A DNA stretch of 45,424 bases from a virus: the UHGV virus genome UHGV-0356033. The stretch is one strand, 5' to 3'. The notes under the pieces were generated by a model, which was given only the letters and a program-made list of their open reading frames with translations, did not search any database and was not told the origin of the DNA. Position numbers and translations under genes: made by a program. Below, piece by piece: positions 6,534 through 27,724 of the stretch (its first letter is position 1; every line of letters starts with the position of its first letter).

Positions 6534-8030
6534 TTATTTCTTTTTCGTCAGGAACTTCGGTTCTAGTCCATCGACAGCCATACCCAGAATGGTACGTGCA
6601 GTCAGTGTACGTTTACCGCCTTTGGTTTCCTGGTCTTTAAACATCCAGTATTCTACCGTGTTGTCCAGAATTTCATTCCAGTCCCACATCTCGTCAATCA
6701 GTTTGTAAATCTCACCCATGCTGAGATGATACTTCATTTCAAGACGATGGTAGTTGTTTTGCATATACGCAATTGCCGCAGTGATTTCTAAAGCGCGACG
6801 TAAGCGGGCGTTATCAGAAATCATATCACGGATCGTCGTGCGTTGGAATTTCACACCAGGTAGAATATCCAGTTCTTTGATGGAACCGCCACTACCGCTT
6901 GATGTGAAACCAAAGTCTGACTTCTTCAGCGTGTCACTTAAATAGTGCCACAGGCTCAGGTGATATAGCAGACCCATTTCCTGAGAGAAGATCATCTGAA
7001 ATTTCACACCGGTGTGACCACCCTTCGCACGATACTGGGTAAAGGTGATAATCTTCAAGTCGTTTACCGACGCATTCATCGCTTTAGAACGTGACGTCGG
7101 ATAAAGTTCTTCGTTAACACCCGTCTGCGCGTTATAGCTCTGGTCTTTCTTCAATTCCCCTGATTTCGTCGCGACGATAAAAGAGTTTGTTAAAAAGCTA
7201 AGCTGACGGCGAGGAATACCTGCGAATTTTAAATCGTCGTTGGCGTCGTCGAGAATTTTTGCATTTGCTTTTTGAGCCTGTCGGCCACCCGCCATCGCTT
7301 TCCCAGAGTCATCGGCCATCTGTGCCACGAAGCCCATGTAAAAACCACCGCGTGCAAACGCAGACGGCCAGCGGCTCATCATATTCGATTTTTGCAGCGC
7401 ATCGTGGGCGTTTAGGATGTTCTGATCAGAATCCCCAATATCAGTTTTTGCGTGTTTGTCTTCCAGCGAACTGGAATGCCACTCTGACAGGGAGTCGATA
7501 GAATAAAGCCAGGGGTCCAGGATTTCTTTTAACTTACGACGAACTGGATCGGGGAACGGTGTTACGCGGGTTTTACCAGACATATACTGCTTGAAGCGTT
7601 TTTCAACTTCATCACGAATATAATCACTGTAATACTGTTCCCCGGGCATTACGTCAGAACCGACCAGGTTATAACGACCTTCGTGGATAAGTTCCAGTAC
7701 GGATGTTCCGTCGTCGATACCGTTGGCGTTCATGGCAGAGATGTACCCAGTTTCTAAACGATCGAGGGCAGCGGACACTTCTGTATCGTACTTAGAACCC
7801 CACTCTGCTTTATAACGTTGCAGGATTTGGAAGATACAGAAATCTAACAAGGTGGATTTAAAGGTGTTTCCGCGACCTGCGAAACCCATGATGTGGGCAA
7901 AACCACCGTTAAGGTAGTACAAACCATCTTCACCTTTTTCGTAGTTACCTAAGGCATGATCCATGATGGTGTAAACGTTAAAACGTGGACGAATTACTTC
8001 ACCGATAACTTGCTTAGTTGGGCCTGCCAT
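6534..8030 (-). CDS. hypothetical protein (498 aa)
   Basis: Long ORF; ATG 8030-8028 with GGAG SD; contains GFAGRGNTFKST segment that is only loosely P-loop-like, so no function called. Confidence 0.6.
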   Translation of the reverse strand: MAGPTKQVIGEVIRPRFNVYTIMDHALGNYEKGEDGLYYLNGGFAHIMGFAGRGNTFKSTLLDFCIFQILQRYKAEWGSKYDTEVSAALDRLETGYISAMNANGIDDGTSVLELIHEGRYNLVGSDVMPGEQYYSDYIRDEVEKRFKQYMSGKTRVTPFPDPVRRKLKEILDPWLYSIDSLSEWHSSSLEDKHAKTDIGDSDQNILNAHDALQKSNMMSRWPSAFARGGFYMGFVAQMADDSGKAMAGGRQAQKANAKILDDANDDLKFAGIPRRQLSFLTNSFIVATKSGELKKDQSYNAQTGVNEELYPTSRSKAMNASVNDLKIITFTQYRAKGGHTGVKFQMIFSQEMGLLYHLSLWHYLSDTLKKSDFGFTSSGSGGSIKELDILPGVKFQRTTIRDMISDNARLRRALEITAAIAYMQNNYHRLEMKYHLSMGEIYKLIDEMWDWNEILDNTVEYWMFKDQETKGGKRTLTARTILGMAVDGLEPKFLTKKK

Positions 8031-8394: not shown

Positions 8395-8430
8395 GTAAAA
8401 AGACTTTACTATGTAACCCTGACTTATAAT
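8395..8430 (+). promoter_or_regulatory. candidate sigma70-type promoter for gene 8444..9199
   Basis: Perfect TATAAT at 8425-8430, 14 nt upstream of ATG; -35 region is poor. Confidence 0.3.
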
Positions 8431-8443
8431 CCGAGGTTTTAGA

Positions 8444-9199
8444 ATGAATGTAAATCCACTTGCAGCGTTATCTAGCTTCGCCGCTAAAGCGTCTGCAATC
8501 TTACCGAAAGGGTTTAGCGGCCCTCAACAAGAGATTGCATTAACCACTTATGACGAGATGTCGGACGTTTCCAAGTGGATGCAACAAGAAAAATTCCTAC
8601 ACTTTGCGGGAATGTTGGTTATCGTTCCACCTGGGTTTAATACCTACGTGATGGATCACTTGAACCGCTTAGAATCCGTATGGAGTTCACTGCAAAACAT
8701 CTATACGGGTATTCTGCTGCCGGTCGATAAACAACTTTCGGCCCTTACACATGATGTGGGTGTACTGTCATTACCGATTGGTTTCCGTTACAAAAATGTT
8801 AATATACCTTTACGTAACGTTAACCCGAAAGATCTGGTTAACTTGTTAGCGAAATCGTACACTAACAACGTTATCGACCAGCGACCAATTGAGAAGACGT
8901 ATCACAGCGCGTCCGAAATTGATGTTGCGTTCAATCGCGCTAAGGCACTGAACGTTGAAATCACAAAACGTCTACGGACGAACATCGACAAGTCAATCGA
9001 GTCTATTCGCACTACGTCAGAAATCTTGTCCGAACAAAACATTCATCCGAATGTAGCAAAAGAACTGACGATGATGTTAGATTTTGCTTCCGATTGGGTG
9101 GAGCTGTTTGGTTTGTTCATGAAGCAGGTTAACGAATTAATCGAATGCCTGAACGTTACTGCCGAACGCTTAAAAGCGCTTAAGGCAAACAAAAAATAA
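8444..9199 (+). CDS. hypothetical protein (251 aa)
   Basis: ATG 8444 with GAGG SD; followed by bidirectional terminator. Confidence 0.6.
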   Translation: MNVNPLAALSSFAAKASAILPKGFSGPQQEIALTTYDEMSDVSKWMQQEKFLHFAGMLVIVPPGFNTYVMDHLNRLESVWSSLQNIYTGILLPVDKQLSALTHDVGVLSLPIGFRYKNVNIPLRNVNPKDLVNLLAKSYTNNVIDQRPIEKTYHSASEIDVAFNRAKALNVEITKRLRTNIDKSIESIRTTSEILSEQNIHPNVAKELTMMLDFASDWVELFGLFMKQVNELIECLNVTAERLKALKANKK

Positions 9200-9252
9200 A
9201 AAAGTAAAGCTACCCCTAGACCGTGTGGTCTAGGGGTAAACTATTTATTTCC
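9200..9252. terminator. bidirectional intrinsic terminator between convergent genes
   Basis: 12-bp stem 9211-9222/9227-9238 with GTGT loop; A-run upstream and T-rich run downstream. Confidence 0.6.
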
Positions 9253-10144
9253 CACGATAAAATCCAGAGATGTAGCTTGGCGCTATCCATCGCCATTCGC
9301 GCCAGCGCATTTCTGACATTTTACCACACCATACACGCTTCCAATGAGCACGACGGATATGTGCTGCGCAATAAATTGCCAAACAAACCTCGTGTCCTTC
9401 CTTGCGTTGCTGCTCTATATCTTCCCATTGTACCGGACTTACGTCTAAAACGACTGCTTCACTACGTGGGCGAATCTCTGTATCAGGAACATAACGAATC
9501 GTTCTTCCACGAAATTCTTTCTTCTCACGTTCAGTACGTTTAATTCGTGACGAAAGGTATAGCCCGATGTAGACGGCGTCGAGTAGTCGTTGATTCTCCT
9601 TAACCGAAGTAAGAAGCGGTTTTAGCACGACGAAATCATCTTCGCTTTTATCGATTTTGTAAATCTCAAACTCCATGTATACCGATTCTTCACGTTCTTC
9701 GCATGACATTACGAAGAGAACTTCTTCGCCTTCGTAAAGACGTCTTCCGATAAATAACGTGATTGGGCTTTCGTCGAGATTTACGGTAACCGAGAAAGTA
9801 AATGAAGGGATGGTTTCTATCCAGAAGTACGGGACATTTTTTAGTCTCTCAGTTTTTGCTAAGAGCGCCATCAGTTCTTCGTCTGAGATGATTTCAACAG
9901 CAGCGTATTGCCATCCTAGGCCCAGGGACTGTTTAATCAGTCTAGGAATCTGTTCTGTAACACCATACTCTTGATAGGTCGGATCTTTAACTGGCATAAA
10001 CGTTACGGGTATTTGTCGTTTATGCTCGTTAATGAACCGAATAAAACGGCACTGGTCTAATCCGTGAATTGTTTGGTGCGCTTTTTCTATCTGTTCGCTC
10101 ATGCGTCTTAGCGCTTTCCCGTAAAGTCTATTATTCGCTATCAT
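9245..10144 (-). CDS. hypothetical protein (299 aa), paralogue of 10170..11096 with shared C-terminal AAHIRRAHW motif
   Basis: ORF track 9245..10240; start moved to ATG 10144-10142 with AGGAG SD 7 nt upstream; aligns with neighbour along most of its length. Confidence 0.55.
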   Translation of the reverse strand: MIANNRLYGKALRRMSEQIEKAHQTIHGLDQCRFIRFINEHKRQIPVTFMPVKDPTYQEYGVTEQIPRLIKQSLGLGWQYAAVEIISDEELMALLAKTERLKNVPYFWIETIPSFTFSVTVNLDESPITLFIGRRLYEGEEVLFVMSCEEREESVYMEFEIYKIDKSEDDFVVLKPLLTSVKENQRLLDAVYIGLYLSSRIKRTEREKKEFRGRTIRYVPDTEIRPRSEAVVLDVSPVQWEDIEQQRKEGHEVCLAIYCAAHIRRAHWKRVWCGKMSEMRWREWRWIAPSYISGFYRGK

Positions 10145-10169
10145 TTTAATGCTCCTAAACACTTTTAGC

Positions 10170-11096
10170 TTAATTGTGGGGTACGTAGCCACGGACAAAT
10201 GTAGGTGGAATCCAGTAAAGTTTTCTCTTCCTTTCCCCATCTCTTGGACCGACCCAATATCTGCGCCAGTGCGCGCGACGAATATGTGCGGCCTTGGCGT
10301 GTTTGATACCTTCCATGGTTTTCAAGTCGGTGTTAAATCCCTTTAGATATTTCACTTGTCCTGGCGTGATGTCTATTTTAACGTCACGTTCACGAGGTTT
10401 GATTTCGTGACTTATGCTACCATTCTTTTTGATTTCTTTGAACTTAATGTCATTGAAAGACCCTCTGAGATTAGGCGGGATTAGCGTACAGAGAAATATC
10501 AACGATATGGCGGTTTTAGCCAGTGATAACCATAACGTCTTCTCTTGTTCGGTCTGTACGCCAGTCGTATAATCGATTTCAACAAGCCCGTTTCCAACAC
10601 TACATATCTCTAACGAGCAGGTGGCGATCGTGGTAACGCCTTCTGTTAACCCGTAATCAGTATTTGTAGCAATTATAATAAACCTTCTATTCCCATTTTT
10701 TCGATAACCGAGAAAGAAAGTCTCATCTTCTTTACCTACATCGATTGCTACAGTCCAAGTAGGTATAAAGTCTAACCACTCTTCAGGGAATTTACTGGGC
10801 ATCTCAGTCTCGAAAACAAGTTCTCTAAGTGCTCGATCGGATATTAAGGAAGCACCACCGTATAGCCATCCAATTGCCAATGTTTGTGCGTGAAGGGAAT
10901 GGGGATCTTTGAGACCTAACTCAGCATCGTAGGGTATAAAGGCATTAGTTAAATGCTTACGATTCTTTTTTATCCATTTCGAGACAGGATTTTCCTTTAT
11001 TCGGTTTTCTTCCATGACATTTTCAAGATGCTGAGACCCCATTTGTCTAAGGCAGTCTTTAATACCTTTTACTTTTTTACTTTTGTACAAATACAT
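10170..11096 (-). CDS. hypothetical protein (308 aa), paralogue of 9245..10144
   Basis: ATG 11096-11094 with AGGAGAA SD; C-terminus KAAHIRRAHWRRYWVGP...WIPPTFVRGY matches CAAHIRRAHWKRVWCG...WIAPSYISGF of neighbour. Confidence 0.6.
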   Translation of the reverse strand: MYLYKSKKVKGIKDCLRQMGSQHLENVMEENRIKENPVSKWIKKNRKHLTNAFIPYDAELGLKDPHSLHAQTLAIGWLYGGASLISDRALRELVFETEMPSKFPEEWLDFIPTWTVAIDVGKEDETFFLGYRKNGNRRFIIIATNTDYGLTEGVTTIATCSLEICSVGNGLVEIDYTTGVQTEQEKTLWLSLAKTAISLIFLCTLIPPNLRGSFNDIKFKEIKKNGSISHEIKPRERDVKIDITPGQVKYLKGFNTDLKTMEGIKHAKAAHIRRAHWRRYWVGPRDGERKRKLYWIPPTFVRGYVPHN

Positions 11097-11117
11097 GGTT
11101 TATTCTCCTAAAATGGT

Positions 11118-11150
11118 TAAAAATAAAGTAACCCTAGCCGAAGCTAGGGT
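11118..11150 (-). terminator. intrinsic terminator downstream of gene 11156..11644
   Basis: Stem 11131-11138/11143-11150 with CGAA loop; T-run on minus strand. Confidence 0.5.
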
Positions 11151-11155
11151 GTCTA

Positions 11156-11644
11156 TTAATCTATTTTGACGTAATCGGGATAGTTAGCTTTTAGCCACTC
11201 CCATAGTTGCAGAGCAAGTTGGTTTTCGTTACGCTTGATGATTTCTACGATTTCGTTCAAGAGAGAGTCTTCAACCCAAATCCGGGTATAAAATTTTTCC
11301 CATTCCGGTTCTGTATAAGGGACTAGCGGGGTAGGGAATCGTCCCATGTGGTACGCATCAGAAACTTTCTTTAAGAACTCGTTGCGACCATGGCGTAGGC
11401 GTTGCCGTACGTCTGTTTCTGTTATGCGCTTGCTTGATGGATCGAAGAAATCAAGTATGATAAATATGTATCCAAATAAGCTCTGAGAAGAAAAGTAGGA
11501 CGCGGCGTAGTCCGCCATCCAGGGAGTGTCTACAACTAACGGAGTCAACTTTTCTTCAATTTCTTTTCTTACACGCGTTCCGTTATTGAGAAATTCATGT
11601 ACGAAATCGGTGTCACGAATATCGAAGTTATGATTTAAGTTCAT
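11156..11644 (-). CDS. hypothetical protein (162 aa)
   Basis: ATG 11644-11642 directly after stop of upstream gene; AGGA SD. Confidence 0.55.
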   Translation of the reverse strand: MNLNHNFDIRDTDFVHEFLNNGTRVRKEIEEKLTPLVVDTPWMADYAASYFSSQSLFGYIFIILDFFDPSSKRITETDVRQRLRHGRNEFLKKVSDAYHMGRFPTPLVPYTEPEWEKFYTRIWVEDSLLNEIVEIIKRNENQLALQLWEWLKANYPDYVKID

Positions 11645-11645
11645 T

Positions 11646-12170
11646 TTACTGTCCTAAAATTGGGGAGAGTTTGTCTGCGGTGTTTAACAACGCTTTTGTA
11701 ATTTCGTGGTTGGTCTCTTTTAGGATGATGCAGCAGAGAGTGGTATAAACCTCGATTGCTAACGCGATTTCTTGTTCAGTCAGGCACGGTTCGGTACCGC
11801 CAATCCCGTAACGTTGCGCTGCATATTCAATTTCAAGTTTCAAACGTTTTCGTAGTGCCTCATCGTTAGTTAAACGCGTACACGCCCGATCGAAACGTCT
11901 ATTGTAAGCCTCGATCTTGTGGACAATTTCGCGTCGCAGTTGGTCGACATTTACGTTATCATCAAGAGTGATGGTGACGTTGTCAACTAAACAGTAATGC
12001 ACTGTGTGTCGTAAGTTGTGTAATGTGGCGACAGTAACGACCCGCTCCTGATGGTCGCTAAAGCCGTGAGCACCACAGAGCTTGCGTGCAACCGCGCCAG
12101 AGATTTTCTCCTCTAGCGCTATCGGTGTGGCAATGGTTGTTTTCTTACGAAGCTGAATTAAAATATCCAC
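11646..12170 (-). CDS. hypothetical protein (174 aa), GTG start
   Basis: No in-frame ATG near 5' end; GTG at 12170-12168 preceded by AAGGAG SD with 7-nt spacer. Confidence 0.5.
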   Translation of the reverse strand: MDILIQLRKKTTIATPIALEEKISGAVARKLCGAHGFSDHQERVVTVATLHNLRHTVHYCLVDNVTITLDDNVNVDQLRREIVHKIEAYNRRFDRACTRLTNDEALRKRLKLEIEYAAQRYGIGGTEPCLTEQEIALAIEVYTTLCCIILKETNHEITKALLNTADKLSPILGQ

Positions 12171-13490: not shown

Positions 13491-14159
13491 CTATCTAAGA
13501 ATATTTTTAGCGAAAAAAGGATCGACTGTAAACTCCTTCACCTGTGAATCATAACCCGAATGTATTTGATCGCTACTGAGCAAATACCGGTCTAAGTCGT
13601 GCGGAAGAATCCAAGAATCACCTTGTTTAAAAATACCATAATCTGTTGTTCCAGAGGAAGAAATGATTTCCTCTGGAGACGAATAGATGTGGCGTAAAGC
13701 GAGATCGGACGGCTTTAACACGATTAATCGAACGGGAAGTTGACTGACTGCCTCTTTAATAAACTGGTCGCGATTAAACCAAATTATTTTTTCGGGGTAG
13801 GTTTCGAATTCAGCCCATGCCCGCGTGATAACTAATTTGGAAATCTTTTTCAACTCTTCAGAACGCTCTGCGTAGCCGATACACTCCTTGCGTACTTCAT
13901 GATTTTCTATCGATGCTGTGATTTTTTGGAATAGGTGTTGTTGGAAAAAGCCGTTCTCCGGGATATCACAACCCGCGTTGTATAGTGCAATGATCTCCCA
14001 CAACAACGAAAGAGAAAACACAAATGCTAACTTTTCCACAACTTCCCAATCTTCGGAGTAAGGGGCTTTAAAGCCCCAATACTGCCGTGCGTTATACATA
14101 AAGTGAGTTTGTAAAAACCGGGGGGCTTTTGACAAGACCTCACTATAAACGATCAGCAT
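13491..14159 (-). CDS. hypothetical protein (222 aa)
   Basis: ATG 14159-14157 overlaps stop of upstream RNase H gene. Confidence 0.55.
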   Translation of the reverse strand: MLIVYSEVLSKAPRFLQTHFMYNARQYWGFKAPYSEDWEVVEKLAFVFSLSLLWEIIALYNAGCDIPENGFFQQHLFQKITASIENHEVRKECIGYAERSEELKKISKLVITRAWAEFETYPEKIIWFNRDQFIKEAVSQLPVRLIVLKPSDLALRHIYSSPEEIISSSGTTDYGIFKQGDSWILPHDLDRYLLSSDQIHSGYDSQVKEFTVDPFFAKNILR

Positions 14160-15673
14160 TCAAGCTCCTTATCCGTCAATATTCGTTTGTTTGAATAATA
14201 GCCACACCACAACCCATGATATTTTTCCCCGATATAGACCAAAGCGTATTCGATATACTGCCGTTCTGGACGCCGTACCGCCACGTAGAATCGTCCTTCT
14301 GGTTCTTTCATACGGTTGATTTCCGTACGCGTCGGTATGTCGATACCACGAGTAAGGATAGTTTTAACCTTGTTTTTACTACCAGGGATATGGATGGTTA
14401 CGTCAAAACCTTTATCTACGTTACGATAAAAATCTTTCTTCGGCTTACCTTTCTCATCGTAAAGCAGGTCAGTAATGTCGTTCATCACGACTGAGTTTTT
14501 CCCTTCCATGGCATCGCGTAACCAACCTGCAAGTTCATCACGAATCGTAATGCAGCGATAAGACAATAACGCGGGACGAAGAATTCGTGTAATCGAAAGA
14601 TCTTCAAACATCCATAGGTTTTTGTCTTCGCTAAAATGCATCCGATCGATAGGAATACCGTTAGCTGCGGCTTCTGCGAACTTCTTACGTTTTACGAATA
14701 AGTTAAATACAACGGCGATGGGATCAAATTGACGTAAACGGGGCACCCCTTCCCACGCTTTCGCAGAGTGGGTATTTACCAACTCGTATACGTTATCCCA
14801 TGGTTCTTTGGTAAACATTACGCAGAATTGTGCGTCTGGAATGTACTTACCAACGAAGACGATATCGTCCTTCTGTTTTGCATGGTTCCCACCGAACATG
14901 TAATAAAGTTTATTACCCTTAACTGTAACAGTGGGATGCGGTTCGTTCACCATCGGGTAACAGAACTTCGTAACACAGATATCGGGAAAAGCAGACAAAT
15001 TGACACCTTCACCAACAACTTCTGGTTGCTGTTCTTCCTCAGGCATCTCGTCTTTTGACCAATACGGTGTATAGTCTAAGCCCTCCCCTCGAGCCGAAAT
15101 ACTTGAACCCTTCCGTGCTAACTCGTCGGCACGTTCGTTTCCATAACGTCCAGAGTGGCCTTTAATCTTAAGGACACGAACACCTTTCCCTTCTTTCTTT
15201 AACCGCTGTTTAACCTCCCACATCCGTTGGATTAATTCCAAGTTCGCAATGGGTGTACCGTCCGCACGCCGCCATCCTCGTGCTGCCCAACCGTCAATCC
15301 AATCGTTATACGTGTTGACAACGTAAGATGCGTCGATATAGATAACATAGTTTTTAGCAACAAAAGGTGCGTGTTCGAAGACGGTCAAGAAAGCCACGAG
15401 TTCTGCAACGTCGGAGTGTGACATTTTTGGTACAGGCACAACACCGTCAATAAACTCCACGGTTTCTGGTAAAGGTGGAAGTTTTTCATCCTTGTTTATC
15501 TGGCGGTATCCTGACGTCGTAATCCCCTCGGGAATAGAGGGATGGCGATAAACCCGACCATCCTCAATCGTTTCACGATTAAATAAGTATCCATGAATCC
15601 CCGCTCCTGTACCGAGCGGGGAGGTCAAATGGCTACCATCCGTGTAAATTACTGCAACATCAACGTTCTTCAT
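14153..15673 (-). CDS. RNase HI-domain protein fused to an uncharacterised C-terminal domain of about 315 aa (506 aa)
   Basis: N-terminal 190 aa carry RNase HI hallmarks: IYTDGS...G.G, VAEL, IYIDAS, NDWIDGWAARGW..ADG.P..N.EL, KGHSGRYGNERADELARKGS (compare E. coli RnhA FTDGS, [43 protein letters not shown]). Confidence 0.7.
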   Translation of the reverse strand: MKNVDVAVIYTDGSHLTSPLGTGAGIHGYLFNRETIEDGRVYRHPSIPEGITTSGYRQINKDEKLPPLPETVEFIDGVVPVPKMSHSDVAELVAFLTVFEHAPFVAKNYVIYIDASYVVNTYNDWIDGWAARGWRRADGTPIANLELIQRMWEVKQRLKKEGKGVRVLKIKGHSGRYGNERADELARKGSSISARGEGLDYTPYWSKDEMPEEEQQPEVVGEGVNLSAFPDICVTKFCYPMVNEPHPTVTVKGNKLYYMFGGNHAKQKDDIVFVGKYIPDAQFCVMFTKEPWDNVYELVNTHSAKAWEGVPRLRQFDPIAVVFNLFVKRKKFAEAAANGIPIDRMHFSEDKNLWMFEDLSITRILRPALLSYRCITIRDELAGWLRDAMEGKNSVVMNDITDLLYDEKGKPKKDFYRNVDKGFDVTIHIPGSKNKVKTILTRGIDIPTRTEINRMKEPEGRFYVAVRRPERQYIEYALVYIGEKYHGLWCGYYSNKRILTDKELEC

Positions 15674-15675
15674 TC

Positions 15676-16410
15676 TTAATCCCTGGTTAATTGATCACGA
15701 ATCTGCGGCGCAACATACTCGCCCGTTTTCAGTTCTTCGTGACAGGCTTTGGCGCGTTCAAACCCGTATTGGCGTGTGACCAAAGCGAGGTGGTAAATAC
15801 GTGCCGTGGTGTAGGCTTCTTTTGCTGCATCCCACATAGCGTGGTGCTCAAAAGCGGGCTTACCGCGTGTCCAGTAAATTTGCTCTACAGTTAGGTCAGG
15901 CTCGAAACCAAATGCAAAGGCTAAACGTTCTGCGGTACGATCGCTATCCAGTGCACTGAATTTACGGAACTTCCCTGGCGGAATATCACACTGTGCGAAC
16001 GCGTTCATGAAAATCGGTGCATCGAAGTCAGGACCACGCATGGTAATAACAAATTCATGTTTTGCGGTAATCTCCCCGAGCCATTTTTGCATCGCCCACA
16101 GTGCGTCCGGCAATGCTGTCGTCCCACCCCATGCTTCCGCATAGGCTTCACGAGACGGTGCGTATTCGGGTTCGCCTTTACCTTCCCACCAACCAACGGT
16201 TTGTGGGTCTTCGTGGAAAATGGCTTTTGCTTTAGGATCGTTAGGATCAATACGGATGTATGAGGAACCGACCATTTTCAATGTAGGGACGTCAAAAGCC
16301 ACTAAACCTGCACTTAACAGATAAGCATCGGGATGTAATGATTTGGTTTCAGCATCAGCGCCAATAACCAGCGTCGGTGTGTACGGGGTGACAATTTTTG
16401 GGTAGGTCAT
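15676..16410 (-). CDS. DEDDh-type (DnaQ-like) 3'-5' exonuclease (244 aa)
   Basis: Exo I-like DAET near N-terminus, Exo II-like AFD, Exo III-like HHAMWDAAKEAY; ATG 16410 with AGGAGA SD. Confidence 0.5.
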   Translation of the reverse strand: MTYPKIVTPYTPTLVIGADAETKSLHPDAYLLSAGLVAFDVPTLKMVGSSYIRIDPNDPKAKAIFHEDPQTVGWWEGKGEPEYAPSREAYAEAWGGTTALPDALWAMQKWLGEITAKHEFVITMRGPDFDAPIFMNAFAQCDIPPGKFRKFSALDSDRTAERLAFAFGFEPDLTVEQIYWTRGKPAFEHHAMWDAAKEAYTTARIYHLALVTRQYGFERAKACHEELKTGEYVAPQIRDQLTRD

Positions 16411-24972: not shown

Positions 24973-25158
24973 CTAATTCCGCCATTCGCATTCGCGTTGA
25001 CGCCAAATTGAACCCCATGATAGTTTAATCAGATAAGATGAAACTACCCATAAAATCATCACCACACAAAACATGACATAAAGAACCGCTAGTATGGACA
25101 TGAAGCCAAACCCTGCCGCATCCACAATACGACGGAACCAATCAGTTTGCATAAACAA
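24973..25158 (-). CDS. small membrane protein (about 59-61 aa)
   Basis: Hydrophobic core FGFMSILAVLYVMFCVVMILWVVSSYLI; TTG 25158 with GAAGGAG SD 6 nt upstream (or ATG 25152); overlaps 3' end of ATPase gene. Confidence 0.4.
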   Translation of the reverse strand: MFMQTDWFRRIVDAAGFGFMSILAVLYVMFCVVMILWVVSSYLIKLSWGSIWRQRECEWRN

Positions 25159-27646
25159 TTTTTACTCCTTCGTTATACACCGCAGGCAATGTCACCCCTT
25201 CCGGTTCGATGACACAGTACGATGCTTCATTAAGTTTAGAATGAACCTCGGCTTCGTGGGAGACTACCAACAGTTGAGAAAATTCTCCCGAGTTTGCTAA
25301 CGTTTTAATAAAACCGACCAGGTTGTTACGGTGCTCCTCATCCATGCCTTCCGAAGGCTCATCCAAAAGCAACGGAAACTGATGCAACTTCAGCGCTTTG
25401 TACGCAGTCAGCCTGAACATCAGATTAAATATCGCACGCTGCGCCTTAGACCCTTTACGCACGTCAGGAACAGGCTCAGGATGCGTTTTTAGCTGGACAG
25501 GAAAAGTATAATCCAAATCGCCGTCAGTGAGGTCACAAGGCATAACGCGCATGGGGTACGTCCAGACCTGTTCGATATAACGCGTCATTAACTCTGTGAT
25601 TCTAACGATAGCGTTGTAAAAATACTTTCTAAGTACACCCTTTTCTGGCGAGAAGGCTTGAATCATCAGTTTGTTATTGAACTGCTGGGCTTGTAAGTCA
25701 GCAAGTTCGCGTTCCAAACTGTTGAGCTGATTCAATTCATTTTCCATCTGACGATAACGTTCGCGTGCGGTTGTAAAAGCATCCAGCTTCCCTTCTCGAG
25801 CACGTAAGAGTTCCTCGACGACCGTATTTGTCAACGTAACCTTAACATCACTCTCTAACCGTTCGAATAACGCACTGAAATCATCTACAGCACGTTTAAC
25901 ATTCACCAGATAGGTAAGTGTCGTGTTAGCCAGTTCGTGCTCTCTACGACGCATTGAGAGCATCTCTGTGGCTTTACCTAATCGTGACTGTTGAAAAGCA
26001 ATTTTCTGTTGTAAAGCACCATCGACGTTACCAACGGCCGCTACGGCATCCTGCCATTCTTTTTCCGCCTTCACTAACCGTTGTCGGGTTTCATGGTACT
26101 CAATAGCAGAGTACAACTCACCGTCAAACGCTGCGCATAGACTCCCGAACTGCTCGCGTGATTCTGTGAAAACGTTACGTTCTTGCAAACGCTTAAAGAA
26201 CATGCTCAATACCGGGTCCTTTGAATACGTCAGCACAATCTCACGAACCTGCCGCATATAAGTTACATCAGATTCTAACTCAACACGATCGCGTAATAGG
26301 GCCTCTAACTGCGTTTGCAGTTCCGTGCGCTGCTGCTGTTGTCCGCGAATCGAAGACTCAAGTTCAGGTAAAGAACGTGTAACACCAGGCCGAAACTTAA
26401 ACCGGCACTGCGGACAATCCACTTCCGCTGTTTCTAAGTAGTGATTACGTTCGTGATTTAAATTCTGTAAAACGTTCTCCACTCGCTGGAGTCTATCCCG
26501 CAACCCTGCGGTTTTTTGATCCATCACCAGAAGCCGTTCTTCCAAAACATTGAGTTTTTCAGTTGAATGAATTGCGTCCAGTGTTGTTCCTAACCGTTGC
26601 CCCCAGACACGCGCATCGGTAGCCGCACGAAGTTGGTCTAAATTGACGTTGTCGTTAAATAGACCCGGAAAGAGATGCTCGGTGTCCCATTTGGTAAGTA
26701 ACTCACGTAAACGCGCCAATGTATTCTTGAGACCTTCGTGATTCCGCATCAGGTAGTCTTGTCGTGTCGACTCATCCATCAATAACGACAAGTCTTTATT
26801 CAACATCGATACCTCTGTTTCAGTAGACACGACAGCTTCGCGGGCCGTCGCTTCGTTTTGTCGCGCGGCCAGTATCTGTTCATCAGTAGGCAGTCCACCA
26901 CGATGTTGTAATATTGCGTCGATGGTTGGGCCCAAGCTGTTTAATAACGCTTGGATTGTTTCGATGGTGACGGCACGATTTAATCCTGGCAACTGTTCGA
27001 TTTCTCGGTTCAGTTCACGTAAATCCGATTCCAAACCTTTTAATCTCGTCGCCAACTGCTGCCGTTCTTCCTCGTTCTCAATAACACGCGTCCGCAATTC
27101 GGCGATTTTACGGCTGGTGATTTCAATACCCCCATTTAAGGCAGTAAGGTTTTTACGTAAACGTTGATAAAACCCTAACGCGTAGGTGAGGTCAGAGGTA
27201 CTTAAACGGTAAAACCACTTACGACGCAGTTCCGTTCCTGCATCCGTTAAAAGCACTTCTCCGTTCAGTAGTTCTTTAATCTCTTTTGTAATGCCTGTGA
27301 TTTCTTCAACACGGGAGTTGTAGACTTTCGCATTACCTTGCTCGACGATCTTTGCCCCCGTGGTCAAGTTCTCAATATCACAAACCAGTGAGTTCCCTTT
27401 ACGGGCAACTTTGAAACGATAGCGTTGATCGCCAACTAAACAGTAGTTCGTGTAAGAACCGCCGTCTCTGAATTCAGTTTTAGCCGGTGCTAAGGGTAAG
27501 AACACAGACAGTAGACTGGTTTTCCCGCAGCCGTTCCCACCCAGGATAATTGTTGTTGGAGACTGGATAGTGAAATCGAAAGTTTCAATTTCATGTAACC
27601 CCATCCCCGTAAAACCTTTGAGTATAATGCGTTCAACTTTTAGCAT
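25142..27646 (-). CDS. Rad50/SbcC-family (SMC-like) ATPase with coiled coil and CxxC zinc hook (834 aa)
   Basis: Walker A GGNGCGKTS near N-terminus; long coiled-coil middle with CPQC; C-terminal signature-like GSKAQRA, Walker B LLLDEPSEGMD, H-loop VVSHEA; start set at ATG 27646 (GGAGG SD) rather than track 27721. Confidence 0.6.
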   Translation of the reverse strand: MLKVERIILKGFTGMGLHEIETFDFTIQSPTTIILGGNGCGKTSLLSVFLPLAPAKTEFRDGGSYTNYCLVGDQRYRFKVARKGNSLVCDIENLTTGAKIVEQGNAKVYNSRVEEITGITKEIKELLNGEVLLTDAGTELRRKWFYRLSTSDLTYALGFYQRLRKNLTALNGGIEITSRKIAELRTRVIENEEERQQLATRLKGLESDLRELNREIEQLPGLNRAVTIETIQALLNSLGPTIDAILQHRGGLPTDEQILAARQNEATAREAVVSTETEVSMLNKDLSLLMDESTRQDYLMRNHEGLKNTLARLRELLTKWDTEHLFPGLFNDNVNLDQLRAATDARVWGQRLGTTLDAIHSTEKLNVLEERLLVMDQKTAGLRDRLQRVENVLQNLNHERNHYLETAEVDCPQCRFKFRPGVTRSLPELESSIRGQQQQRTELQTQLEALLRDRVELESDVTYMRQVREIVLTYSKDPVLSMFFKRLQERNVFTESREQFGSLCAAFDGELYSAIEYHETRQRLVKAEKEWQDAVAAVGNVDGALQQKIAFQQSRLGKATEMLSMRRREHELANTTLTYLVNVKRAVDDFSALFERLESDVKVTLTNTVVEELLRAREGKLDAFTTARERYRQMENELNQLNSLERELADLQAQQFNNKLMIQAFSPEKGVLRKYFYNAIVRITELMTRYIEQVWTYPMRVMPCDLTDGDLDYTFPVQLKTHPEPVPDVRKGSKAQRAIFNLMFRLTAYKALKLHQFPLLLDEPSEGMDEEHRNNLVGFIKTLANSGEFSQLLVVSHEAEVHSKLNEASYCVIEPEGVTLPAVYNEGVKIVYAN

Positions 27647-27676
27647 ACCCACCTCCATAAAGACGGAGTGTGGTGT

Positions 27677-27719
27677 AAAAAGAAAAAAATAAAGAAAGGG
27701 AGAACCCGAAGGTTCTCCC
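27677..27719 (-). terminator. intrinsic terminator downstream of gene 27725..28333
   Basis: Stem 27698-27706/27711-27719 (GGGAGAACC/GGTTCTCCC) with CGAA loop; long T-run on minus strand. Confidence 0.6.
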
Positions 27720-27724
27720 AAACG

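Follow-up and report, generated by a model that had tools for sequence, protein, structure and literature searches.

A tandem pair of paralogous genes

The window analysed here is a 45,424-nucleotide (nt) stretch of the virus genome UHGV-0356033. Two adjacent genes on its minus strand, which we call A and B (Table 1), fill positions 9245–11096, as located by an original prediction made from the sequence alone, and almost certainly encode two members of the AcrVA2-like/FinQ family (Pfam PF26125). The prediction had described two proteins that align over most of their length and end in a shared basic aromatic tail. All the strings that it quoted (LAIGWLYGGASLISDRAL and LGLGWQYAAVEIISDEEL, EEWLDFIPTWTVAI and YFWIETIPSFTFSV, as well as AAHIRRAHW in both proteins) were found, and A and B proved to be tandem paralogues, with 24% identity over 279 amino acids (aa) in BLASTP (E = 2e-19). 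Their Smith-Waterman score of 187 was far above random expectation (33.6 ± 4.7 in 1000 shuffles; z = 32), and z was still 18 after removal of the last 45 residues. The identity between the two proteins is unevenly distributed: 18% in the N-terminal helices, 34% around W77...P112, 17% in the central sheet, 21% in the linker and the helix that follow it, and 41% in the C-terminal mini-domain. As described, the final 45 residues are basic and aromatic, with an isoelectric point (pI) of 11.6, 12 Lys or Arg and 3 Trp in A, and a pI of 10.6, 10 Lys or Arg and 5 Trp in B. At the nucleotide level, the AAHIRRAHW core is identical in A and B at 22 of its 27 positions, and all 5 differences are synonymous third-position changes. 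Because of these synonymous differences, we rejected recent gene conversion as the cause of the identical motif, which is maintained by selection.

The mechanically called open reading frame (ORF) of gene B extends from 10240 to 9245 (331 aa) and overlaps gene A by 70 nt. Its start is most likely the ATG at 10144, since an AGGAG lies 8 nt upstream of this codon and the resulting 299-aa product is 99% identical over its full length to P0004, an independently called metagenomic protein. With this start, B begins 25 nt downstream of A, which has its own ribosome-binding site (AGGAG, 11109–11105) before the ATG at 11096. Two strong, GC-rich hairpins with T-runs bracket the pair, and this arrangement, together with the short spacing, gives it the appearance of a compact two-gene unit. 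Only ~20 nt separate the upstream hairpin from the AGGAG of gene A, so that A must depend on read-through unless the hairpin serves another purpose, such as RNA processing, RNA stability or a recombination boundary.

Table 1 Features of the gene pair and its borders (positions in the window).
Feature	Position	Strand	Remarks
Gene A, AcrVA2-like/FinQ-family protein, 308 aa	10170..11096	-	CDS 11096..10173, TAA stop 10172-10170
Gene B, second AcrVA2-like/FinQ-family protein, 299 aa	9245..10144	-	CDS 10144..9248, stop 9247-9245
AAHIRRAHW core of gene A, residues 269-277	10266..10292	-	H271, R273, H276; columns invariant across the 70 aligned family members
AAHIRRAHW core of gene B, residues 260-268	9341..9367	-	H262, R264, H267
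Variable N-terminal two-thirds of gene A, residues 1-205	10482..11096	-	Contains W77 and D87; candidate target-recognition module
Constant C-terminal third of gene A, residues 206-308	10173..10481	-	Candidate effector module with the HxRxxH mini-domain
Terminator-like hairpin (ACCCTAGC-ttcg-GCTAGGGT) with T-run	11119..11150	-	Between the upstream 162-aa gene and gene A
Bidirectional terminator-like hairpin, 12-13 bp	9200..9239	.	Between the gene B stop (9245) and the convergent plus-strand gene ending at 9199

Assignment to the AcrVA2-like/FinQ family

The original prediction could not assign A and B to any family, a statement not borne out by our profile and hhalign comparisons, which placed both proteins in a characterised one, AcrVA2-like/FinQ (PF26125). 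By the yardstick that the prediction had set for itself, the question of the missing family is thereby answered. A precomputed PF26125 match exists for P0004, for P0001 (89% identical to A) and for every other close homologue, and the annotation of the encoding contigs gives this family the name 'AcrVA2-like'. A profile built exclusively from the window proteins and their jumbo-phage homologues had one match among solved structures, AcrVA2 (Protein Data Bank (PDB) 7CI1/7CI2; E = 6e-8, positions 72–300), and a second profile, made from a 70-sequence alignment of diverse family members, matched nearly the whole of AcrVA2 (E = 2e-41). Comparison of the first profile with FinQ (L013, 1228–2316) by hhalign gave a probability of 98.8% (E = 5.5e-17, 216 columns), and a family representative used as query matched finQ on hundreds of IncI-type plasmids. 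The predicted models of A and B also have the fold of the AcrVA2 crystal structure (7CI1). Both proteins match PHROG 6160, a group without annotated function, with a lower score for B. The family is large: an exhaustive search with a 17-sequence profile retrieved 4841 representatives of clusters formed at 50% identity (E ≤ 1e-3), 1112 of them at E ≤ 1e-30. Some representatives are longer than the usual 300–350 aa, namely P0054 (540 aa, with two matched stretches), P0131 (555 aa) and P0155 (502 aa), which suggests that fused or double-domain AcrVA2-like proteins exist elsewhere. A megablast search of positions 8400–11700 against cultured phages returned no match, and a literature search for the accession PF26125 found nothing.

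Conservation of functional residues and candidate mechanism

AcrVA2 reduces cas12a mRNA and protein more than 10-fold, regardless of promoter and codon sequence. This down-regulation requires translation of the target, including its start codon, and tracks the amino-acid sequence of the target; the binding site of AcrVA2 lies in the first 30 residues of Cas12a, with the motif LSKT (Marino et al., bioRxiv 10.1101/2022.11.29.518452). The substitutions H286A, R288A and H291A abolish the down-regulation of cas12a mRNA and leave Cas12a binding intact, and W79A and D89A have moderate effects (bioRxiv 10.1101/2022.11.29.518452). The H286A protein traps its target, and the reads of cas12a are lost downstream of the 5' end. 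The five residues W79, D89, H286, R288 and H291 correspond to W77, D87, H271, R273 and H276 in A and to W78, D88, H262, R264 and H267 in B. In all three proteins the Trp and the Asp are 10 residues apart, and the W, H, R and H columns are invariant across the 70 diverse members of our alignment. The HMMER alignment of the motif region to AcrVA2 reads 'RPHIRRGHWHGYWQG'.

Because the three C-terminal residues tested in AcrVA2 align with the tail and are conserved in A and B, what had been described as a basic aromatic tail corresponds to the HxRxxH effector motif of the family. No other part of the protein is as conserved or as critical to function, and A and B are most alike in it, in line with the emphasis that the original prediction had put on it. 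A contact of the tail with RNA or with the ribosome is plausible, and the phenotype of the AcrVA2 mutants would fit an RNA-, ribosome- or effector-directed role of the motif. By analogy with AcrVA2, the protein outside the tail would recognise a protein target and not nucleic acid.

We consider it fairly probable that A and B are two diverged silencers of the AcrVA2/FinQ family, which form an accessory two-gene unit in a variable genomic hotspot and work by an AcrVA2-type mechanism. The variable N-terminal and central part would be specific for one polypeptide, probably the N-terminus of a nascent target protein during its translation in the cytoplasm, and the invariant C-terminal HxRxxH mini-domain (AAHIRRAHW...W...G...W) would then trigger the loss of the target mRNA. 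Translation-dependent down-regulation of a target mRNA is known from AcrVA2 only, on which the putative lowering of target mRNA by A and B is modelled. Since the identity between A and B is just 17–34% outside the C-terminal mini-domain, we infer that they may silence two different targets.

FinQ offers another model for the same genes. It reduces the mRNA of the F tra operon, an effect read earlier as Rho-independent termination at several sites (Ham & Skurray 1989, as recounted in PMC8744291). If A and B acted likewise on a rival element (co-infecting phage, prophage or plasmid), their tail, with a pI of 10.6–11.6, would contact nucleic acid or RNA polymerase and cause premature termination independently of translation, which is close to the nucleic-acid binding that the original prediction had suggested. 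The homology to FinQ also favours this possibility. Nevertheless, we regard it as rather unlikely, given that the effect of AcrVA2 needs a start codon and follows the amino-acid sequence of the target instead of its promoter or codons (bioRxiv 10.1101/2022.11.29.518452). Furthermore, the FinQ data are older than the work on AcrVA2 and equally compatible with a co-translational loss of mRNA, and a nucleus-forming phage encloses the transcription of its DNA, whereas translation is cytoplasmic.

A variable slot in SPN3US-like jumbo phages

The window belongs to the genome of an SPN3US-like jumbo phage of ~225 kb. The product of the UvsX-like neighbour is 81% identical to its counterpart in Salmonella phage SPN3US, and IMG/VR contigs of 225 and 221 kb have 96–97% nt identity to this part of the window. 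The hosts of the cultured relatives are Salmonella, Escherichia and Erwinia, and two of these relatives, SPN3US and Asesino, are Chimalliviridae shown experimentally to form a nucleus (PMC13282480). Synteny with SPN3US, Asesino and EC001, together with the IMG/VR contigs, identifies the window as jumbo-phage DNA and not, as for FinQ, as part of a conjugative plasmid.

The order of genes at the locus is RNase H ... X, a convergent 251-aa gene, a 99-aa gene and the UvsX-like gene, where the slot X is occupied by one AcrVA2-like gene in Asesino, ChrisDB, EC001, SaP7 and the Alexandravirus phages. SPN3US has no AcrVA2-like gene, and its gp213 directly adjoins gp214. The gene is found in 4 Seoulvirus-type records, compared with 26 records that have a UvsX-like gene 80–90% identical to that of the window. 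EC001 and SaP7 belong to the same species and have flanks with 94–98% nt identity, but their AcrVA2-like alleles are only 41% identical at the aa level. Within the Seoulvirus SPN3US species as a whole, the gene is absent from SPN3US, one allele is present in EC001, Lh1B and JN03, and the 41%-identical allele in SaP7. The site between the gp213 and gp214 homologues (SPN3US 186719–186782) is therefore a clean insertion or replacement hotspot, and the AcrVA2-like gene is accessory and allelically hypervariable, in the manner of an arms race. Synteny could have suggested a conserved core gene of the clade, an idea that we rejected in view of its absence from SPN3US and of the 4 versus 26 records.

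The pair sits inside a module of replication, recombination and nuclease genes. The UvsX-like recombinase gene occupies positions 6534–8030, and in the surrounding minus-strand block (14153–16410 and 25142–27721) lie genes for a 506-aa protein with an RNase H domain and for an SbcC-like protein of 859 aa. The block also contains a 244-aa ORF (15676–16410); in the related contigs L007 and L008, a gene of the same length just upstream of RNase H carries a match to the Pfam Rv2179c-like family. The convergent 251-aa neighbour (8444–9199, plus strand) is conserved (PHROG 4682, E = 2.5e-83; 93% aa identity to L008), and in PADLOC it weakly matched PDC-S15, a candidate defence protein (E = 0.0028); this match, the only one among the neighbours scanned against PADLOC, is probably due to chance. 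No neighbour matched a Pfam family above the curated cut-off, and the Pfam and PADLOC searches indicated no acr or aca gene among the 162-aa, 251-aa, 99-aa and UvsX-like neighbours.

The location within a replication and recombination block (RNase H, UvsX-like and SbcC-like genes) and the compact arrangement between two hairpins could point to a role in host take-over or self-regulation, the two paralogues silencing host housekeeping genes or genes of the phage itself to time the infection cycle. A conserved core gene would be expected in such a case, whereas this one is absent from SPN3US and from most Seoulvirus records, its alleles are just 41% identical within one species, and its recognition part is exchanged between lineages (see below). 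We deem such a role unlikely.

The phage context also bears on the possibility that A and B are true AcrVA2-type anti-CRISPRs, one or both of them recognising the N-terminus of Cas12a (LSKT) and blocking type V-A immunity. Their homology to AcrVA2 and the retention of all its tested functional residues speak for this function, which has in fact been proposed for huge-phage proteins that cluster with AcrVA2 (Al-Shayeb et al., PMC7162821). However, most of the ~1800 AcrVA2 orthologues, which are found on plasmids and in 'megaphages' and include FinQ as a named homologue, occur in bacteria without Cas12a (Marino et al., bioRxiv 10.1101/2022.11.29.518452). A and B share almost no sequence with AcrVA2 in their N-terminal and central parts (12–14% identity in structural alignment), two such different paralogues are hard to square with one conserved target motif, no acr or aca gene is indicated among their neighbours, and the cultured relatives infect Salmonella, Escherichia and Erwinia. 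These genera are not known as typical carriers of type V-A CRISPR. In addition, SPN3US and Asesino build a phage nucleus, a structure reportedly found by Mendoza and by Malone in 2020 to shield phage DNA already from DNA-cutting CRISPR enzymes. We therefore hold an anti-Cas12a function to be very unlikely.

Comparison with known members of the family

AcrVA2 is encoded by a Moraxella bovoculi prophage, where its gene adjoins acrVA1, whereas A and B lie in a virulent SPN3US-like jumbo phage, the relatives of which infect Enterobacterales, and are next to neither acrVA1 nor any known acr or aca gene. Unlike AcrVA2, which has an established target, Cas12a, they are two diverged tandem copies with putative targets of their own. 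The third His of the AcrVA2 sequence HIRRGHWH is replaced by Arg in A and by Lys in B.

FinQ, encoded on IncI plasmids such as R820a and R621a, belongs to the same family and has a C-terminal motif in common with A and B (KRPHIRRGHWHTYWTG...WLPP). Across the 216 aligned columns it is 23% identical to the jumbo-phage profile, and its N-terminal region did not align. Like A and B, it is encoded by a mobile element of Enterobacterales, and it acts without Cas12a, lowering the mRNA of a rival element; unlike them, it is plasmid-borne and present in a single copy, and its target is the tra operon of the F plasmid.

A third comparison is with the homologues of cultured jumbo phages: Asesino gp235, ChrisDB gp236, EC001 MGA_211, the SaP7 protein, those of Alexandravirus (e.g., pEa_SNUABM_1 00248) and Special G gp231, all in PHROG 6160. 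They have 20–30% identity with A and B and the same motif, and occupy the same genomic slot. Nearly all are annotated as 'hypothetical protein', with Special G gp231, from an Erwinia phage, as 'putative protein FinQ'. Each of these phages, including those of Erwinia, has one copy, and the tandem pair is confined to the lineage of the window.

Origin of the pair and mosaic evolution of gene A

This restricted distribution emerged from 92 loci fetched as ~10-kb stretches around each match, 90 of which contained a match to the family profile in hmmsearch. Two copies were present in 10 loci only, all belonging to the window's own lineage, and tandem pairs are thus not a common feature of the family across these stretches. 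All the matching records of cultured phages (83/83) had a single place each, and the pair is kept in at least 10 related metagenomic loci. Several plasmid matches, from Acinetobacter (H43, H44, H46–H48) and Polaromonas (H18), had two places each that matched an AcrVA2-like query, which may mean that plasmids, too, carry the family in several copies. Neighbour-joining placed A, B and the copies of Seoulvirus, Erskinevirus and Machinavirus in one clade with 100% bootstrap support, and the Alexandravirus copies in a separate one. The branching inside the first clade was weakly supported (B basal at 53%). Since A, B and the single copies group together, the pair arose inside the SPN3US-like phage clade, either through duplication or because two alleles were captured from the pool of the clade itself; the same grouping led us to reject the idea that A and B had been acquired separately from distant mobile elements.

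All pairwise ratios of non-synonymous to synonymous substitution rates (dN/dS) were between 0.04 and 0.23, so that both copies are under purifying selection. One of them could be a decaying duplicate without function of its own, and B would be the candidate, given its lower PHROG score and greater divergence (62–63% aa identity between the window and L008, a 201-kb contig, against 93–96% for neighbouring genes). We regard this as most improbable and, as both genes are intact with dN/dS ≤ 0.23, rejected pseudogene status for either of them.

The history of gene A became apparent in the comparison of L008 with L010, a 224-kb contig. Over 12.9 kb these contigs are mostly 91–100% identical in nt sequence, with the exception of ~1 kb at 56–69% identity, which takes in ~600 nt from the start of A and, before it, the 3' end of the 161/162-aa gene. 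Codons 1–205 of A had dS = 1.39 and dN = 0.28 (dN/dS ~0.2; 60% aa identity), against a background dS of 0.05–0.10, whereas the C-terminal third of the protein was 97% identical, with dN/dS of 0.06–0.07. The switch point lies at a conserved helix (...FLCTLIPP...), equivalent to the LYxCS motif of the family. A similar contrast is seen among P0001, P0002 and P0003, whose last 89 residues are identical and whose overall identity is 67–89%. Because dS was raised together with dN, the N-terminal two-thirds of gene A were replaced by recombination with a divergent allele and did not undergo local acceleration; in-situ positive selection on this part was rejected for the same reason and in view of the dN/dS of ~0.2. 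When the window was compared with L008, by contrast, dS was 0.41 in the N-terminal part of A, below the genome background of ~1.15.

The upstream 162-aa gene (11156–11644, minus strand) is itself hypervariable. Its product had 43% aa identity between the window and L008 (84–96% for other neighbours), its dS between L008 and L010 was 1.29 (background 0.05–0.10), and it did not align between the window and L020, a contig otherwise 95–97% identical. It had no Pfam or PADLOC match and could represent a further gene of this hotspot with an accessory or counter-defence role.

Candidate targets and weight of the evidence

The most likely targets of A and B are host defence proteins or proteins of rival elements rather than Cas12a. 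We rank them first on account of the presence/absence polymorphism of the gene, its allelic hypervariability and the precedent of FinQ in the same host group. A FinQ-style action on transcription and host take-over or self-regulation come next in our ranking, followed by a Cas12a anti-CRISPR and, last, by a decaying duplicate. The mosaic structure of gene A points to a more specific version of the preferred reading, in which a constant HxRxxH effector would be combined with exchangeable recognition modules, shuffled by recombination to keep pace with cytoplasmic non-CRISPR defence proteins or proteins of rival phages. We put it forward tentatively, as a possibility with a somewhat less than even chance of being correct.

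Several observations weigh against the AcrVA2-type silencing that we propose. The step that removes the mRNA has not been worked out even for AcrVA2 (bioRxiv 10.1101/2022.11.29.518452), and the termination by FinQ in the F tra operon, as described in PMC8744291, gives some weight to a transcription-level mechanism. The experimental work on the family stems from members outside jumbo phages, and the idea that the variable module sets specificity is drawn from the pattern of variation only. The third His of the family motif (H278 column), which is not retained in A and B, is ~90% conserved. At the structural level, besides the low identity to AcrVA2 (just 12–14%), a Foldseek search of the PDB returned no match and missed AcrVA2 itself, and the predicted models are of medium confidence (predicted local distance difference test (pLDDT) 67–70), lowest just before the C-terminal region and at its very end.

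Finally, the local Pfam-A, NCBIfam and PADLOC libraries gave no match for A or B. The local Pfam-A search also left unmatched P0001–P0003, which carry a precomputed PF26125, so that its blank result apparently reflects the lack of the PF26125 model in this copy of the library and is not a true negative. Without NCBIfam or PADLOC matches, the genes are not named by the PGAP models and are not part of a known defence system.

Implications for the family and for SPN3US-like phages

Earlier publications already cover the family, its motif and its occurrence in huge phages; the tandem pair, the accessory and hypervariable locus in SPN3US-like phages and the modular N-terminal exchange were not found in the literature retrieved. 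AcrVA2 is so far the sole protein of a bacterial system for which the removal of a specific mRNA upon recognition of the encoded protein has been reported. If the targets of A and B turned out to be ordinary, or the genes dispensable, the finding would amount to a correct family assignment only. Nevertheless, the locus is a natural experiment, with two diverged copies side by side and near-isogenic phages in which little varies but the presumed recognition part of one copy, while its HxRxxH end stays constant. Knowing both targets would tell whether the family is a general, re-targetable silencing device in the conflicts among phages, plasmids and their hosts, and would add a so far unrecognised type of counter-defence or competition gene to the SPN3US-like phages. 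If the modular-silencer reading is true, A and B would be the first examples, in a virulent and probably nucleus-forming jumbo phage, of AcrVA2-family proteins directed at targets other than Cas12a, and the natural series of alleles from the window, L008, L010, EC001, SaP7 and Asesino would map how the family reads its targets.

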